A DNA stretch of 11,911 nucleotides from Herpetosiphon llansteffanensis (lineage in GTDB: Bacteria; Chloroflexota; Chloroflexia; Chloroflexales; Herpetosiphonaceae). The stretch lies in the NCBI RefSeq assembly GCF_003205875.1, contig NZ_PUBZ01000089.1, forward strand, positions 64,001 to 75,911. Reading direction: 5' to 3'. Shown here in pieces: positions 3,616 to 11,718 of this stretch. The position numbers and the translations under genes are program-made. Positions within the stretch are counted from its first letter, which is position 1, and each line of letters opens with the position of its first letter. The notes beneath the pieces were generated by a model. That model was not told where the DNA came from. It made no database searches and was given only the letters and a program-made list of their open reading frames with translations.

Positions 3616-5946
3616 TTACTTGGCAGTGGCACTTTGGCGTTTAACCGCAACATCGGTTTTGCGATGTTGCAAGTGTTCGGCAATCACATACGAGCCAATC
3701 ACGAAGGCCGCAGCTGCCACTTGCGAGGCAATGCCTTCCCACGTTGCGTAGAAGCCCAGCCACATATTGGCCCAATAGGGAATTTCGAGGCTGCGAATTG
3801 GGTGCAATGGCATCCAGCCAACCAATTGCATAATGTGGACCGTGTTGCCAACCATAATCAGCAGCACCGCGCCAATCATCACACCAGTAACGATCAGCAT
3901 CTTCTTATGCGGTAATTTTGCTTGCAAACCAAAGACCAGCACGCCAACCAAGGCCGTGCCGCCAAGCCCCAGTGCCACCCCACCAAGCACCACTTGGGTG
4001 CTGGCTTCGAGCACCAGCGCTTGCAAAAAGAGCACGGTTTCAACGCCTTCGCGATAGATGCTGGTAAAGCCCAAGGTGATCAAGCCCAGCCAAAGCCCAG
4101 CTTTGCCGCCGATAATTCGGCGTTTTTGGGCATGGAAATTGGCCATCCAGCCAGTCCAATAAACTTTGTGAAAAAACCAGTTGGTGATCAACAGCAACAC
4201 ACCAATCGCAATCAACGAAACAATCGCCTCGATCTTTTCTTGATCGCCACGGCGAATTAGTTCATTGATTAGGCCACGTGCCAACATCCAGGTTAGGGCT
4301 GTAGCAACCATAGCGAGGGCTGCGCCAATCCAAATTGGCTTGCGATAGCTGCGTTGTTCGCCAATTTTGAGGCTGGCGAGCAGCGAGGCCAAAATCAACA
4401 CAGCTTCTAAGCCTTCACGGAACACAATCACCGCAGCGCTGGTTGCCACAGCTTCTGGCGTGCTGGAGCCGCCAAGGGCATCTTGCGCCAAATCAAGTTG
4501 TTTATCCAAGGCTTGACGGCTGGCACGAATGTCGCTCAACGACGCTTTTTGGCGAATCAACTCGGCAAGGCCAGTAAATTCGTCTTTGCCATACCAAAAG
4601 AGATTTTCAATTGGGGCTTTGTATTCTGGCGCAAACACAATCAAACGTGCTTCTGGGCCAGATTCGAGCACAGCGTAGGCTTCCAAACGCGCCGATTCAG
4701 CCAGATCGTATTGATCGCCAGCAACCGCATTTTCCATCTGATCAAGCATTGAATCGATCACATCGAAATCGCCTTCGAGGCTCGATTTTTGCCACTCGGC
4801 GGGCATAATTGAGGCCAAGGTTGTGGTAATACTATCGACTTTGGCTTGCACTGCATCAGGATCGGCAACGCTGGTACGTTGGGCCGCAGCAGTCAAAATC
4901 GTTTCAAGATCGCGCAACTCGCCAGCAACTTGCTGGGTTTTGGTCGCATCAATTTCGACCAACAAGCTTTCGAGGTCGCTAAATGCAGCAGCAGCGCCAT
5001 TGCGGAAGGTCGTGGCTTCTTGAATTTCGAGATCAAGCGTTACTTGGCCGTTGCGCACGCCACGTTCATATTCAACTGGCACGAGGCTCAAGAATCGGCG
5101 CAATTGACCAGCACGGCGCACTTGCTCTGATGGGCTTAGTGGAGCTGCGCGAAAGCCGCTGAGCGAGCCTTCAAAGGTCGTAATTGCCGTTTCAAGGTTG
5201 GCGTTGCTCAGCGCTGCTTCGCGCAAGGCTTGGGCATTGGTTAATGCACTATCAGCCTTATCAGGGTATTGCCCACGATACGCTGGCTCTAAAATATTAA
5301 AATAGCCTTGAATTGCCGCGCCGGCCTCTGCTTGTTGAATGCGATTACCTTTTTGGGCGGCGCTGCGCAGAGTACGCAAACTTTCGTTAAGTTTGGCTTG
5401 GTAGGTATCCAACAAATCTGCATCGAGCGCAATGCGGGCATCGGCGGCGCTATAGGCTGCTTGTTTCCATTGCTCGATGGCGCGGGCTGCATCGCCGTTG
5501 GGGCGTGAAAAGCGCGTTGCATTGCGAAACTCGCGCACTGGCAGCCATTGCAAGGCTTGTTCTGGCTTGCCTGTATCGATTGATTGGCCAACGATGCCAT
5601 AGCTGGCTTTGAGCAAATCGATCCAGAGCAACGATCGCTGTTGAGCAAATGCCGCAACATCGTTGGCTTCCAAGGCTTTGGTTAAATCTGCCCAGCGCGT
5701 GGCGATTGTGCTCGCCTGTTGGGGAGCCAAGCTGGTCAAATCTTTGGCGAGGGCTTGATCATACAAGGCTTGGGCTTCGCTGACTAAACGTTTGGCGTTG
5801 GCAGCATCAGTTGTGAGCGATAATTGGGCTTGCACCAACAACGAACGCACCGATTCGCTGGCTTGGGCTGGTGATGGTTCGGCTGCCATGGCAGACCATG
5901 GCAATAAGGCAACGACCAACGCCAGCAAAAAACGACGCAACCACAT
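3616..5946 (-). CDS. FTR1/EfeU-family high-affinity iron permease fused to an N-terminal signal peptide and a ~490-aa extracytoplasmic helical domain
   Basis: The C-terminal ~270 aa has 7 predicted TM helices. REGLE lies in TM1 (encoded at 4405-4419) and REGVE in TM4, which is the FTR1 family's twin RExxE signature. I chose the start at 5946 (MWLRRFLLALVVALLPWSAMA|AEP, a signal peptide) because AGGAG lies 5 nt upstream. The track ORF extends to 6129, but that upstream stretch has no SD and overlaps stem-loops. The N-domain is Ala/Gln/Leu-rich and all-helical. Its C-terminal part (AEWQKSSLEGD ... PIENLFWYGKDEF) resembles the neighbouring lipoprotein (AAWLKSSPTYEQMEG ... PGNLFGVTESTLWG). Confidence 0.8.
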   Translation of the reverse strand: MWLRRFLLALVVALLPWSAMAAEPSPAQASESVRSLLVQAQLSLTTDAANAKRLVSEAQALYDQALAKDLTSLAPQQASTIATRWADLTKALEANDVAAFAQQRSLLWIDLLKASYGIVGQSIDTGKPEQALQWLPVREFRNATRFSRPNGDAARAIEQWKQAAYSAADARIALDADLLDTYQAKLNESLRTLRSAAQKGNRIQQAEAGAAIQGYFNILEPAYRGQYPDKADSALTNAQALREAALSNANLETAITTFEGSLSGFRAAPLSPSEQVRRAGQLRRFLSLVPVEYERGVRNGQVTLDLEIQEATTFRNGAAAAFSDLESLLVEIDATKTQQVAGELRDLETILTAAAQRTSVADPDAVQAKVDSITTTLASIMPAEWQKSSLEGDFDVIDSMLDQMENAVAGDQYDLAESARLEAYAVLESGPEARLIVFAPEYKAPIENLFWYGKDEFTGLAELIRQKASLSDIRASRQALDKQLDLAQDALGGSSTPEAVATSAAVIVFREGLEAVLILASLLASLKIGEQRSYRKPIWIGAALAMVATALTWMLARGLINELIRRGDQEKIEAIVSLIAIGVLLLITNWFFHKVYWTGWMANFHAQKRRIIGGKAGLWLGLITLGFTSIYREGVETVLFLQALVLEASTQVVLGGVALGLGGTALVGVLVFGLQAKLPHKKMLIVTGVMIGAVLLIMVGNTVHIMQLVGWMPLHPIRSLEIPYWANMWLGFYATWEGIASQVAAAAFVIGSYVIAEHLQHRKTDVAVKRQSATAK

Positions 5947-6010
5947 ACAAGCTCCTAAAATTGTGGTTTGCTGCTCCTCACAATGAGCAACAGCAAAATA
6001 AACCGACAAA

Positions 6011-6042
6011 GGACGTGAACTGTATGCCAACAGTTCACGCCC
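6011..6042 (-). terminator. Terminator/attenuator-like hairpin inside the 277-nt spacer between the lipoprotein and permease genes
   Basis: GGACGTGAACTG (6011-6022) pairs with CAGTTCACGCCC (6031-6042), giving a 9-bp perfect core plus 2 bp after one mismatch. On the minus-strand RNA it is followed by UUUGUCGGUUUAUUUUGCUG. Confidence 0.45.
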
Positions 6043-6223
6043 TTTGCTGCTTAAGTTTTGTGATGGAGGGACGCACACCCAAACTCCATCGACCTTGCTC
6101 CGTCGCAACTTCTTTCTCATTGATCGCATAGGTATAACTGTGATACAAGCAGTATACCTATTTTGGTTCGATTTGCGAATCAGTTCGTGAACCGATTTTT
6201 AGCCTAATCCTGTGTTTTTTTGC

Positions 6224-7303
6224 TTACTCGCTGATTTTCACGTTCAAGCGAGCAGCAATTTGGCTGACTTGGCCGGTAATTGCATCAGCACGATTTTGGG
6301 CTTCAGCACCGAGCAAATCGGCTTCTTCAGCAGTAAAGCGTTGGCCAGCTTGTTCTTTTTTGTGCACATCGGCAACAAAATCGCGGAGGCCTTGCAAGTT
6401 GGTCTTGATTTGGCGATCTTGGTCGGCATCGAGGGTGGCAATTTTGGGGCTAAGGCTATCGTAGACAACTTGCAAGCTGCCCAGAATATCGCCAATGTCG
6501 GCCAAGCGTGAGATGGCCACAAAATCGCGTTGGGTGCTGCTATCGCCAGCAACAAAGCGCGAATTCTTCCACGAATCGAAATATTCGTTCATGGTTGGCA
6601 CCATCACGACCAAGGCGCTGAATGCGTCGCTGTCGGTTGGTTCCCACGCTTTGGCGGCGATATCAAGCTCGGTTGCGGTAGCCTTGAGCTTTTGGGCTGC
6701 TGCCAATAAGACATTGGCTTCTGGCAACGATTCGCCAAATTCCACCGTGCCGTTGCCGTTGATGTCTGCTTCAACATCGGTGATGCGGAAGGCATCGTAC
6801 GTGCCCCAGAGCGTGCTTTCGGTTACGCCAAACAAGTTGCCTGGTTTGGCAACCGTGCGGCCATCAGCCAAGCTCAAATCATAATTGACCACGCTATCGC
6901 CGCCTTCTTCTGCAGAAGCACCAGCATCAAGCGTTACGTCGAAATCGGCCAAGCTGCTTACTCCTGCAACGATCCCTTCCATTTGTTCGTAGGTAGGGCT
7001 GGATTTCAACCAAGCTGCTTTGGCATCGTTCAAGGTCGTGCCAACCTCAGCTTGCTTGCTGCGCCAGAGCGTTGCATAATCGAAATTAGCAGCTTTTGCC
7101 AAATCATAATAGCGCTGGCTAGCGGTTTCCAAAGCGGTGGTACTGGTGATCAAATCGCCAGTTTTGCCCAAAAGATAGGTCTTGATTGCGCCAAGTTCGC
7201 CAGCGGCGGCAGCTTGGGTTGGTTGCGTGGTAGGAGCAGCCTGTTCAGCACCACAGCCGAAAAGCACTGCTACGAGAGTTAATGCACAAAGCCAACGATA
7301 CAT
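6224..7303 (-). CDS. Imelysin/EfeO-EfeM-like periplasmic lipoprotein; the His of the HxxE motif is apparently replaced; it contains an EF-hand-like loop
   Basis: I preferred the ATG at 7303 with GGAGG 10 nt upstream; the track's start at 7327 is a TTG. The signal peptide MYRWLCALTLVAVLFGC ends in an LFGC lipobox. The core AAWLKSSPTYEQMEG ...(~45 aa)... GNLFGVTESTLWG (6803-6841) matches the imelysin pattern aW..sP.YE..E ... G.H.iE.LLWG, except that His becomes Gly-Val. DINGNGTVEFGE (6731-6766) fits the canonical 12-residue EF-hand loop. Confidence 0.7.
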   Translation of the reverse strand: MYRWLCALTLVAVLFGCGAEQAAPTTQPTQAAAAGELGAIKTYLLGKTGDLITSTTALETASQRYYDLAKAANFDYATLWRSKQAEVGTTLNDAKAAWLKSSPTYEQMEGIVAGVSSLADFDVTLDAGASAEEGGDSVVNYDLSLADGRTVAKPGNLFGVTESTLWGTYDAFRITDVEADINGNGTVEFGESLPEANVLLAAAQKLKATATELDIAAKAWEPTDSDAFSALVVMVPTMNEYFDSWKNSRFVAGDSSTQRDFVAISRLADIGDILGSLQVVYDSLSPKIATLDADQDRQIKTNLQGLRDFVADVHKKEQAGQRFTAEEADLLGAEAQNRADAITGQVSQIAARLNVKISE

Positions 7304-7380
7304 GAGCCAGAAACCTCCAAATGCCAAGGTCTAGTTAAATCTGTTAGTACGGAAAAAACTGTTTTTATTGTGATTGGCAG

Positions 7381-8971: not shown

Positions 8972-9571
8972 ATGCTTGATTTAGATCGTGCTTTAGCCCA
9001 ATTTCCCGTGTTGGAAACCGAGCGCCTGCTATTACGCCAGCCAGTTTTAGCCGATCGCGATCCAATGTTTGCGATTATGGCCGACCCACAGGTATTGCGC
9101 TATTTTGGTCAATTGCCAATGGAAACGCCTGAGCAAGCAGAAAATCGCTTGAACAGTCTCAAACGATCGTTTGAGCAAAAAATTGGCGTGCGCTGGGCCA
9201 TTACCTTGCACGAGCATGGCGAATGGATTGGCTCAGCTGGGTTTTGGCGGTTTGAGAGCGAGCATGCGCGGGCCGAAATTGGCTACGAATTGGCAGCGCA
9301 CTCTTGGGGTAAGGGCATTATGACCGAGGCCTTGCAGGCGATTCTACAATTTGGCTTTGAAACCCTTAAATTACATAGCATCGAAGCCCAGATTCACCCC
9401 GACAATCAAGGCTCGCGGCGGGCGCTCGAAAAAGTTGGCTTTCATCAAGAAGGGCTGCTGCGCGAGAATTACTTTGATATTGTCGAAAACCGCTTTACCG
9501 ACACCGTGGTATTTGGCTTACTTGGCGCTGATTGGCGGGCGGCGCAGGCCAAAAAGATTAATAACGGTTAA
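8972..9571 (+). CDS. GNAT-family N-acetyltransferase, RimJ/RimL-like (Acetyltransf_3 type)
   Basis: The protein has the pattern TERLLLRQ ... WAI ... G.IGSAGF ... EIGY.L....GKG..TEA ... H.DN.GS...EK.GF that is typical of RimJ/RimL-type GNATs. The start is uncertain. The ATG at 8972 follows AGAGGTG, but the spacer is only 2-4 nt. The track ATG at 8951 has no SD. Confidence 0.75.
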   Translation: MLDLDRALAQFPVLETERLLLRQPVLADRDPMFAIMADPQVLRYFGQLPMETPEQAENRLNSLKRSFEQKIGVRWAITLHEHGEWIGSAGFWRFESEHARAEIGYELAAHSWGKGIMTEALQAILQFGFETLKLHSIEAQIHPDNQGSRRALEKVGFHQEGLLRENYFDIVENRFTDTVVFGLLGADWRAAQAKKINNG

Positions 9572-9580
9572 GCCGAAGCT

Positions 9581-9609
9581 TTGACTTTTTATCGGCGCTA
9601 CGGTAGCAT
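9581..9609 (+). promoter_or_regulatory. Candidate sigma70 promoter for the small lipoprotein gene
   Basis: TTGACT (9581-9586), a 17-nt spacer, then TAGCAT (9604-9609). The ATG lies ~28 nt downstream of the predicted TSS. Confidence 0.35.
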
Positions 9610-9644
9610 AGCGAGCGATTGAAAACCCATGGAGGTTCTTACAG

Positions 9645-9881
9645 ATGCGCAAACACATGTTGGCTAGCCTTGTTGTGCTAGCACTCTTGGCTGGTTGTTC
9701 AACCACCGGTTCAGCTCCAACCACTGCTCCGGTTAACAACCAACCAACCAATCCGGCCCCAGCCCAAACTCCTGCAACCTACCCAACGCCAGCAGATGGC
9801 AACGTGGTTGTTGAGCCAACCTTGGAGCCAGGCCAATACCCAGTGCCTAACTCGCAACCAACGGCCTACCCAACTCCCTAG
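9645..9881 (+). CDS. Small (78 aa) Pro/Thr/Gln-rich secreted lipoprotein
   Basis: GGAGG at 9631-9635 sits 9 nt before the ATG. The signal peptide MRKHMLASLVVLALLAGC has a canonical LAGC lipobox. The mature part is low-complexity, with the motif YPTP recurring (PATYPTPADG ... PTAYPTP). Confidence 0.55.
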   Translation: MRKHMLASLVVLALLAGCSTTGSAPTTAPVNNQPTNPAPAQTPATYPTPADGNVVVEPTLEPGQYPVPNSQPTAYPTP

Positions 9882-9883
9882 GG

Positions 9884-9912
9884 TTGCACGGCCTTAGTGG
9901 TAGTGATATACT
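9884..9912 (+). promoter_or_regulatory. Candidate extended -10 promoter of the nusA operon
   Basis: TTGCAC (9884-9889), a 17-nt spacer, then TG-n-TATACT (TG at 9904-9905; -10 at 9907-9912). A second TATAAT at 9912-9917 overlaps it. Confidence 0.5.
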
Positions 9913-9937
9913 ATAATCAGTATGAAGTACACAGACC

Positions 9938-9970
9938 GAAACGTGGGTGTCCCCCACGTTTCTTCTTGTC
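9938..9970 (+). terminator. Terminator-like hairpin in the nusA leader (candidate autoregulatory attenuator), or the terminator of the upstream lipoprotein gene
   Basis: GAAACGTGGG (9938-9947) pairs perfectly with CCCACGTTTC (9953-9962), a 10-bp stem with a 5-nt loop. An interrupted U-tract UUCUUGUC follows. The hairpin sits at about +19 from the predicted TSS and ~95 nt upstream of the nusA ATG. Confidence 0.5.
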
Positions 9971-10056
9971 AACAAGGTTAACCAACGCAGGGTGGCTCCA
10001 TCAAAGCAGGTATTATGTCGATACCTGACCCACTGCACCCCTAAGCGAGGCTAGAT

Positions 10057-11391
10057 ATGAAAAGTGATTTTTACGCAGCTATTTCACAGATTGCCGCTGA
10101 ACGCGGCATTCCCCGCGAGTCGGTGCAGGATGTGGTCGAGCAAGCCCTAATTTCTGCCTATCGGCGTTATTTGGGCAATAATCCGCCACCCGTCGATGTT
10201 AAGATTGAATTAGAGCCAAACACTGGCCGCATTCGGGTTTACGCCGAGAAGCAAGTTGTTGATGAAGTGATGGATGATCGCTTCGAGATCGACATTGAAG
10301 ATGCGCGTAACGTGCGTGCCGATGTTGAAATTGGCGAAACCGTCTATGTTGAAAGCACGCCCGACGATTTTGGCCGGATTGCCGCCCAAACTGCCAAGCA
10401 AGTTGTGCTCCAACGGATCAAAGAAGTTGAACGCGACCATATTTATGGCGAATACTTTGATCGTGAAGGCGAAATTGTAACTGCCACCGTGCAGCGTACC
10501 GCCAAAGGCAACGTCATTTTGGAAGTTGGGCGTGCAGAAGCGATTCTGCCGCAAAAAGAGCAAATTAGCCACGACAACTATCGCCATGGTCAGCGGCTTA
10601 AAGTCTATTTGATGGAAGCCCGCCGTGATGATCCCCGTGGCCCGCGCTTGGTGGCCTCGCGCACCCACAAAGATTTGATCAAACGCTTGTTTGAGATGGA
10701 AGTGCCAGAAATTTATAACGGCACAGTTGAAATTAAATCAATTGCCCGCGAACCAGGCTTACGCTCGAAAGTAGCCGTGCATGCCCGTCAAGAAGGCATC
10801 GACCCGGTTGGCTCGTGCGTGGGGATGCGCGGGATTCGGATTCAAAATATTGTCAATGAGCTGAACGGCGAGAAGATCGACGTGGTGCAATGGGGCGCTG
10901 ATATGCGGGTATTTATTGCCAACGCCCTCAGCCCAGCCCAAGTCGTCGAAGTTCATCTTGATGAAGGCGAGAAAACGGCCACCGTGGTCGTGCCAGATAA
11001 ACAATTGTCGTTGGCAATTGGCAAGGAGGGCCAAAACGTTCGTTTGGCAGCCAAACTGGTTGGTTGGCGCATCGATATTAAGAGCGCATCTTCACTCCTC
11101 GAGGAAGAACGCGCTGCTGCCGAAGTGCGCGAAGCTGCCGCGTCGGAACAAATGCTGCAAGAAGCAGCGCTTTCAACCGCTAAAGTCGAAACCCGCAAGG
11201 TCCGTGTCGATTCCTTGGTTACCTATCAAGGGCGACAATATGGCCCATTGCCAGCAGAGATTATTGGCGAAGAAGTCGCGTTGCGTGCCGCCGCCCAAAA
11301 ACTCAATATTTATTTCAATGACAAGCTCATTGCTAGCTATATCATCGAAGATGAAGCTGGCGAGAGCGACGAGACGGATACCGAGGCATAG
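10057..11391 (+). CDS. nusA: Transcription termination/antitermination factor NusA, with a ~100-aa C-terminal extension
   Basis: The N-terminal domain, S1 region ([21 protein letters not shown]) and tandem KH domains ([15 protein letters not shown] ... [23 protein letters not shown]) are all present. GAGG lies 6 nt before the ATG. The gene is followed by ylxR, as in the conserved nusA operon. Confidence 0.92.
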
Positions 11392-11394
11392 CCT

Positions 11395-11718
11395 ATGGCT
11401 GCTCAAAAGCAGTCGCCGCGCCCACGCCATGTGCCACAGCGCATGTGTGTTGCTTGCCGGCGTACCGATAATAAACGTCAGTTGGTACGTCTTGTACGCT
11501 TGGCCGACCAAAGTGTTGTGGTCGATCCAAGTGGCAAGCAAGCGGGCCGCGGTGCATATCTCTGTGCTGAACGCCCATGTTGGACCAATGCGCTAAAGCG
11601 CGGGGCCTTAGAGCGAGCCTTGCGCGTCGAATTGAGCGCGATTGATCAGCAGGCTCTGCAAACAATTGCTGATCAATTTCCCGATGCTGACCCAGCGGTG
11701 GAGGCTGCGATGAACTAA
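11395..11718 (+). CDS. ylxR: YlxR/DUF448-family RNA-binding protein (RnpM-like) of the nusA-infB operon
   Basis: It carries the signature R.CV.CR.....L.R.V ... GRGAY.C....C. It starts 3 nt after the nusA stop, with GAGG 8 nt upstream. Confidence 0.85.
   Translation: MAAQKQSPRPRHVPQRMCVACRRTDNKRQLVRLVRLADQSVVVDPSGKQAGRGAYLCAERPCWTNALKRGALERALRVELSAIDQQALQTIADQFPDADPAVEAAMN

Follow-up and report, generated by a model that had tools for sequence, protein, structure and literature searches.

We describe here the leader of the nusA gene in a stretch of Herpetosiphon llansteffanensis DNA of 11,911 nucleotides (nt) (contig NZ_PUBZ01000089.1, positions 64,001 to 75,911; hereafter the window). It contains a short hairpin (9938-9962) followed by a U-rich tail, which is quite probably a Chloroflexi copy of the bacteria-wide leader attenuator of (rimP-)nusA-infB operons named 'rimP-leader', with NusA as its likely sensor. 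NusA is an essential and universal elongation and termination factor, and to our knowledge the control of its level has been worked out only in Bacillus subtilis, with genetic evidence in Escherichia coli. It may be suggested that this leader attenuator is also at work, or in any case conserved, in the deep-branching phylum Chloroflexota, where it stands directly before nusA.

The preliminary description of this DNA, made from its letters alone, had reported a perfect 10-bp hairpin at about +19 of a leader of about 138 nt, followed by an interrupted U tail, and this anatomy is indeed what is read from the sequence. The DNA arms, GAAACGTGGG (9938-9947) and CCCACGTTTC (9953-9962), are separated by the loop TGTCC (9948-9952), the core GUGGG occupies 9943-9947 and its partner CCCAC 9953-9957, and at the base of the stem three A-U pairs stand directly above the closing G-C pair. 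The tail, UUCUUGUC (in the DNA, TTCTTGTC at 9963-9970), is broken by C, G and C; family-wide, tails have on average 4.4-4.6 U in 9 nt and the consensus UUnUUGU. Release is expected to occur in this tail, so that the transcript would be about 50 nt long. The hairpin folds with -15 kcal/mol (z = -4.85), and none of 200 shuffled sequences was better. The end of the stem is 94 nt from the nusA ATG. A generic terminator scan also lists the hairpin, at a density of such sites (two in 1.5 kb) that equals the level of shuffled sequences. The same window holds what looks like an ordinary intrinsic terminator (about 1235-1268), a palindromic hairpin AAAAGAGCTTGGGG..CCTCAAGCTCTTTTTT (1225-1274), located directly past the lgt stop codon (1228) and provided with an uninterrupted U6 tract; compared with it, the nusA leader hairpin has a broken tail with only 5 U in 9 positions.

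Taken alone, the generic consensus scans for terminators and promoters are not significant, and it is the comparative support that is decisive. We fetched 80 nusA loci and searched them with the core pattern G[TC]GGG-N3-9-CCC[AG]C, which was found once 5' of nusA in 75 of the 80, the chance expectation being about 0.03 sites per locus (by arithmetic with equal base frequencies); conservation in relatives, which the preliminary description proposed to check, is thereby well documented. The copies have the same core, GUGGG-loop-CCCAC, with an A/U-rich lower stem and an interrupted U tail, and the U-rich tail is kept along with the stem in every lineage. In Chloroflexi the hairpin stands directly 5' of nusA, 15-129 nt away, and no rimP lies between them in any examined locus, while in Firmicutes, Nitrospirae and others it is found 509-844 nt 5' of nusA, the intervening open reading frame (ORF) being RimP in Firmicutes and Nitrospirae. 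Ten Chloroflexales relatives (L002-L011, with NusA 61-76% identical) possess, besides the promoter, one strongly conserved block, GAAAAGTGGG-N5-CCCACTTTTCTTnTTGT, whose distance both to the promoter and to the ATG varies. The hairpin is present even where the upstream gene is divergent (L004, L006, L007, L010, L011), and in L003, L004, L006 and L010 only 28-29 nt separate its core from the ATG, so that no promoter fits downstream and the nusA mRNA must pass through the hairpin.

Two covariance models lead to the same site. The model built on 39 Chloroflexi copies with Herpetosiphon left out (R2) recognises in the window only 9931-9971 (33.8 bits, E = 2.3e-6), apart from the reverse strand of the same palindrome, and when it was applied to 233 kb of non-Chloroflexi loci unused in the model, all 54 of the 54 hits with E < 1 fell on the site 5' of rimP. 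The model built on Firmicutes-only, rimP-linked copies (R1) ranks the window site first (17.2 bits, E = 0.018). The lower five pairs of the stem, which the core pattern leaves free, are paired in 95.9% of cases versus 44-69% in slid controls, and four lower-stem pairs are changed on both sides, that is, they covary; in Herpetosiphon a compensatory change from A:U to C:G is seen, and a Thermomicrobiales genome also has C:G, the others having A:U. When the whole metagenome collection was searched for exact copies of the Herpetosiphon variant, 11 matches were obtained, ten of which are located 26-93 nt before a nusA start (Pfam NusA_N was confirmed for six of these ten). The sole match away from nusA (L090 588-614) lies inside a 126-amino-acid (aa) ORF on the opposite strand (..KETWGHPTFRV..) and was set aside as a chance coding palindrome.

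The attenuator is located 3' of a promoter that is itself conserved. A nusA promoter of its own, just past the upstream stop codon, had been proposed in the preliminary description; the stop codon TAG, as read from the sequence, is at 9879-9881, TTGCAC begins at 9884, and comparison speaks for the proposal as well. Here we rely on the phylogenetic footprint, because a generic promoter scan, in which the -35 matches at three of six positions, did not call the nusA promoter. The element GGTTGCRC-N17-TGnTATACT is the best-conserved intergenic block of Herpetosiphonaceae and their Chloroflexales relatives, and of its specific pattern the window has a single occurrence, where 0.01 would be expected. 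In alignment A3, which comprises 10 sequences from Herpetosiphonaceae and near relatives, TGnTATACT is invariant in all ten, and the conserved blocks are GGTTGCRC, TGnTATACT, the hairpin with its tail, and GCGAGG, the remainder being variable. Herpetosiphon geysericola DSM 7119 (L001) has only three differences from the window in the stretch of 189 nt that runs from the promoter to the ATG (9906, 9976 and 10044), all of them outside the conserved blocks; the one at 9906, which is the sole difference in the promoter element, falls on the unconstrained 'n' of TGnTATACT. Between 9963 and 10044 the promoter scan and alignment A3 gave no promoter-like match and no conserved block.

Farther afield, 21 loci, those of the Bacillus cereus group among them, have the pattern TTGCR-N15-TGnTATACT exactly once, on the nusA strand and 5' of the hairpin, and a looser extended -10 pattern precedes the hairpin in 48 of 76 loci. 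In 38 of those 48, from Chloroflexi and Firmicutes alike, a distance of 27-48 nt separates the end of the -10 from the GUGGG core, and the attenuator appears therefore to be promoter-proximal (about +15 to +35) in most lineages. As a separate observation, the promoter of the nusA/rimP operon is itself of one conserved type in different phyla, with an extended -10 (TTGCA..TGnTATAcT; window 9884-9947, L050 2196-2296). In the window, nusA transcription is predicted to start at about 9919-9920, some 7 nt past the -10; given a start at about 9919, the leader would be about 138 nt long and the hairpin would extend from about +19/+20 to +44.

From these data the following mechanism can be suggested. 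From the conserved extended -10 promoter transcription would begin at about 9919, and within the first 45-50 nt RNA polymerase would meet a sub-optimal intrinsic terminator, at which some polymerases may stop and release a transcript of about 50 nt, and others may read through into nusA-ylxR-infB-rbfA. The ratio of termination to read-through would be set by a trans-acting factor that works on the elongation complex or on the hairpin. Control by a trans-acting protein is proposed because only some 19 non-pairing nucleotides precede the hairpin and no alternative RNA fold is possible: the nucleotides between the predicted start and the stem are complementary to neither arm and are unconserved, and an antiterminator cannot be accommodated in 19 nt 5' of the hairpin. 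GGGTGG (9990-9995) and CCCAC (10030-10034) were considered as antiterminator partners and rejected, since both lie 3' of the terminator and cannot pre-empt it. By homology with B. subtilis and E. coli the factor would most likely be NusA itself, and more NusA would then mean more termination, that is, a negative feedback on an essential gene. In the genome of the window, transcripts that arrive from the lipoprotein gene upstream would be stopped by this hairpin as well. A dual role in Herpetosiphon, as leader attenuator and as terminator of the lipoprotein gene, is likely, because according to the terminator scan the hairpin 9938-9962 is the only terminator-like site on the plus strand between the lipoprotein gene and nusA.

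The 'rimP-leader' was described as a short terminator with an unusually conserved GGG...CCC stem and a T stretch, which in rimP-nusA-infB operons precedes the first gene by 4-130 nt (Naville & Gautheret 2010, Genome Biol 11:R97; PMC2965389). According to the same work it has no antiterminator, NusA is the best candidate for the sensor, with RimP also considered, and the conservation of the GGG/CCC stem was explained by a proposed sequence-specific recognition by a protein; in the literature that we searched, no later work on the reason for this conservation was found. The 2010 species set included a single Chloroflexi genome, Dehalococcoides, which is absent from the rimP-leader list (PMC2965389). 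The window hairpin has the same G-rich 5' arm and C-rich 3' arm with the GGG...CCC core and the T stretch after it; it lies on the coding strand in the leader of an operon with nusA and infB, at a distance from the first gene (94 nt) that is within the published range, and its leader offers no alternative antiterminator fold. The Chlorobi examples of that work, GAAAGTGGGG..CCCCACTTTTTTGTTTT, hardly differ from the Chloroflexi consensus, and the models derived from rimP-linked and from nusA-linked copies recognise each other's sites.

The difference concerns the first downstream gene, which is rimP in the original definition and nusA in all examined Chloroflexi. The absence of rimP, noted in the preliminary description, agrees with the Pfam scan, which found no RimP domain in the ten main ORFs of the window, nor within 3 kb on the 5.78-Mb chromosome CP188824.1 (GCA_050106595.1), whose NusA is identical to that of the window and whose called genes give the operon order nusA-ylxR-infB-rbfA. 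Since the family was collected and named by rimP, which is not a property of the RNA, we take the missing rimP as a difference in gene order; the RNA motif is demonstrably the same. The Herpetosiphon copy also differs in a U tail more interrupted than in the proteobacterial examples and in the C:G pair at the position where most relatives have A:U. Because the rimP-leader has already been described, the element is less novel than the preliminary description supposed: the family has been known since 2010 and the mechanism was shown in B. subtilis. The idea of a candidate NusA autoregulatory attenuator finds support as the published rimP-leader proposal (PMC2965389), with NusA dependence in Herpetosiphon suggested by analogy. 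What we add is modest, namely the Chloroflexota instance, in which the attenuator stands directly on nusA without rimP, and a promoter-to-hairpin spacing that is conserved across phyla.

B. subtilis NusA controls its own synthesis through an intrinsic terminator in the 5' leader, at which NusA stimulates termination (PMC12288461, citing Mondal et al. 2016); the preliminary description had referred to this case. NusA-dependent terminators are typified by distal interruptions of the U tract and/or weak pairs at the base of the stem (PMC8060035, citing Mondal 2016), and NusG too stimulates B. subtilis terminators with interrupted U tracts (PMC8060035). The window leader resembles this type, being a leader terminator of a transcription unit that encodes NusA and having the sub-optimal anatomy of a broken U tract with A-U pairs near the stem base; moreover, the Bacillus-group loci have the GUGGG/CCCAC hairpin 3' of the same type of extended -10 promoter. 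The Bacillus leaders, however, precede rimP, whereas that of the window precedes nusA. At least the B. cereus group also has a second terminator-like hairpin, whereas the window has one: in Bacillus thuringiensis (L050) such a hairpin, CCCUGCUUAACGGCAGGGGCUUUUGUU (2399-2425), lies between the GUGGG/CCCAC hairpin (2265-2296) and rimP, and the leader of this group has therefore two tandem terminators.

In E. coli the metY-rimP-nusA-infB operon is repressed by NusA (Plumbridge 1985, Nakamura 1985, cited in PMC2965389), and the two systems would have in common a negative NusA feedback on its own operon and leader terminators; E. coli differs by the tRNA gene and rimP upstream of nusA and by tandem terminators, neither of which is present in Herpetosiphon. 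The Rfam family RF01770, 'Gammaproteobacteria rimP leader', covers the same operon leader, and its 3' hairpin, CUGGGCU..GGCCCUUUUUUU, represents the GGG/CCC motif as it occurs in proteobacteria, but the model is a 102-position composite that includes an upstream CCCG..CGGG terminator/antiterminator. It gave no match at E <= 10 in 9880-10060 or 9400-10300, nor in Bacillus (membership being taken as 47 bits or more), with E. coli as a positive control at 102 bits, and the whole window gave no Rfam hit at gathering thresholds. Judged by these scores, the window hairpin is not a member of the narrower RF01770 family. Rfam is without a model for the general motif, RF01770 being a gammaproteobacterial composite only, and because Rfam models only this form the general motif is unannotated in most genomes.

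Several points weigh against a NusA-sensing attenuator in the window. The NusA dependence is carried over by analogy from a different phylum, and NusA-stimulated termination does not explain a stem that is conserved in sequence, which leaves room for a different sensor. The -35 matches only three of six positions, and the transcription start is a predicted one. The invariance of GUGGG/CCCAC in the alignments is partly a matter of construction, as the search pattern requires it, and the unbiased measure is the frequency of the site, 75 of 80. The E-values of the covariance models are rough by design, that of R1 is marginal, and R1 also picks up the ordinary terminator at 1225-1272.

It is rather unlikely that we deal with the same attenuator family whose sensor is not NusA, so that the hairpin would be either a constitutive partial terminator damping a strong promoter or a target of another factor, the candidates being NusG, some other product of the operon such as YlxR or IF2, and a protein with the ability to read the conserved GGG/CCC stem. 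Conservation of the core in sequence, and not in pairing alone, speaks for this, as a generic NusA effect needs no such conservation; RimP was also weighed by Naville & Gautheret (PMC2965389), and NusG is able to stimulate interrupted-U-tract terminators in B. subtilis (PMC8060035). On the other side, the leader termination of B. subtilis was assigned to NusA (PMC12288461) and in E. coli the genetic evidence is that NusA represses the operon (cited in PMC2965389), and the persistence of the motif in a Chloroflexi operon without rimP makes a cis-encoded RimP sensor unlikely. That the hairpin is only the 3' terminator of the lipoprotein gene, with a nusA start downstream of it, was the case that according to the preliminary description would have spoken against an attenuator. 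The hairpin does start 57 nt past the lipoprotein stop codon as the sole terminator-like site before nusA, and L001, L002, L003 and L005 likewise have a small co-directional lipoprotein gene. We nevertheless find this very improbable, since the hairpin is kept behind divergent upstream genes in the five loci named above and in phyla with entirely different neighbours, since the 28-29 nt left before the ATG in L003, L004, L006 and L010 also oppose it, and since the conserved promoter always lies upstream of the hairpin and nothing promoter-like or conserved is seen in 9963-10044.

An equally slight chance may be given to a hairpin that is not a terminator at all but an mRNA-stabilising 5' stem-loop, an RNase processing site or a protein-bound translational operator. 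Its position near the predicted 5' end of the transcript would fit such roles, and the E. coli nusA leader is processed by RNase III, which counts in their favour; yet the U-rich tail conserved with the stem in every lineage would stay unexplained. The hairpin starts at about +19 and not at the 5' end, and a 10-bp stem is short for RNase III. Occlusion of the ribosome site is made unlikely by the distance to the Shine-Dalgarno sequence, which is about 15-130 nt in Chloroflexi and exceeds 500 nt elsewhere. Control of the terminator by a leader peptide is hardly credible: an ORF of 19 codons (ATG at 9922, TAA at 9979-9981) runs through the hairpin from 3 nt past the predicted start and is present in the window, L001 and L087, but it is without a Shine-Dalgarno sequence, its ATG is missing in L088 and L083, the ATGs of L085 and L089 are in a different frame relative to the hairpin, and nothing comparable is found in other lineages. 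As neither start codon nor frame of the ORF 9922-9981 is conserved, we rejected it.

Returning to the attenuator with NusA as its likely sensor, we may add one speculative suggestion, to which we give a small but real chance, that promoter and attenuator constitute a single conserved module which senses free NusA kinetically, the weak terminator being met at about +20 to +50. The idea arises from the promoter-proximal placement together with the sequence-invariant UGGG/CCCA core; NusA would have to be loaded in the brief period that begins with sigma release and ends at the terminator, and recognition of the UGGG/CCCA stem by NusA may be sequence-specific. If this were true, the persistence of the motif in an operon lacking rimP would exclude RimP as the sensor; even without this assumption the Chloroflexota case argues against RimP in that role and strengthens the view of an ancient NusA-linked feedback device. 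The promoter, 19 nt and the hairpin would constitute a minimal natural template for the question of why the GGG/CCC stem is conserved. The coordinates of the features are collected in Table 1.

Table 1. Features of the nusA leader and adjacent genes (window positions, unless a locus is named)
Feature	Position	Strand	Description
Upstream gene	9645..9881	+	78-aa proline-rich lipoprotein, signal peptide with lipobox LLAGC; from the ORF list
-35 region	9882..9889	+	GGTTGCAC; hexamer TTGCAC 9884-9889; sequence, A3 footprint
Extended -10	9904..9912	+	TGaTATACT; TG 9904-9905, TATACT 9907-9912; 17-nt spacer after TTGCAC
Attenuator hairpin (candidate)	9938..9962	+	perfect 10-bp stem GAAACGUGGG/CCCACGUUUC, loop UGUCC
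Interrupted U-rich tail	9963..9971	+	UUCUUGUCA; 5 U in 9
Second small hairpin	10007..10027	+	CAGGUAU/AUACCUG, arms 10007-10013 and 10021-10027; -9.3 kcal/mol, z = -2.77
Shine-Dalgarno region	10045..10050	+	GCGAGG, 6 nt 5' of nusA ATG (10057); GAGG = 10047-10050
nusA	10057..11391	+	444 aa; Pfam NusA_N, S1, KH; first operon gene
ylxR (DUF448)	11395..11718	+	Pfam YlxR; second operon gene
Lipoprotein genes 5' of nusA promoter	window 9645-9881; L002 977-1210; L003 2491-2703; L005 2628-2870		

The second small hairpin, CAGGTAT/ATACCTG, to which the preliminary description drew attention, does exist but has no support beyond the genus: it occurs only in Herpetosiphon, namely in the window, in L001 and, with one pair changed to U.G, in L087, alignment A3 gave no compensatory change, and other Herpetosiphonaceae leaders differ at this place, so that by its distribution it is probably lineage-specific. 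The 86 nt at 9971-10056 fold no better than shuffled sequences (z = -0.35) and the whole leader gives z = -1.78; comparison of folding with shuffles thus provides no evidence for a larger structured RNA in the leader. By eye only, the 3' arm was also compared with boxA, which it resembles in some Firmicutes (GCUCUUU); the idea was abandoned, as the resemblance is missing in Chloroflexi (ACUUUUC/ACGUUUC). The Shine-Dalgarno block GCGAGG is kept in the seven Herpetosiphonaceae sequences of alignment A3 and is replaced by purine-rich GAGG/AAGG-like sequences in L002 and L005, L009 being gapped in these columns.

In Chloroflexaceae (L004 2831-2863, L010 2850-2880; also L003, L006, L007) an insert of 115-211 nt separates the conserved promoter from the hairpin. 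Oscillochloris and Chloroflexus have there a common block, CAGGCCGTTCAGGG..GCGATGAACCGTC, able to form a small hairpin CGTTCA/TGAACG, and the insert could be an extra regulatory domain of the leader; L003 gave no Rfam match.

Upstream of nusA, the lipoprotein ORF 9645-9881 matched no Pfam family in the Pfam scan, and similar small lipoprotein ORFs precede nusA in L001, L002, L003 and L005; a small (70-80 aa) proline-rich lipoprotein gene without a Pfam family thus stands just 5' of the nusA promoter in several Chloroflexales lineages. Ahead of the lipoprotein gene of the window there is a promoter-like site, TTGACT-17-TAGCAT, at 9581-9609. Elsewhere in the window, an 837-aa ORF on the minus strand (3616-6129) carries an FTR1 iron permease domain at residues 564-760 only, its N-terminal part of about 560 residues being without Pfam assignment, and it is adjoined by an imelysin (Peptidase_M75) gene at 6224-7327.

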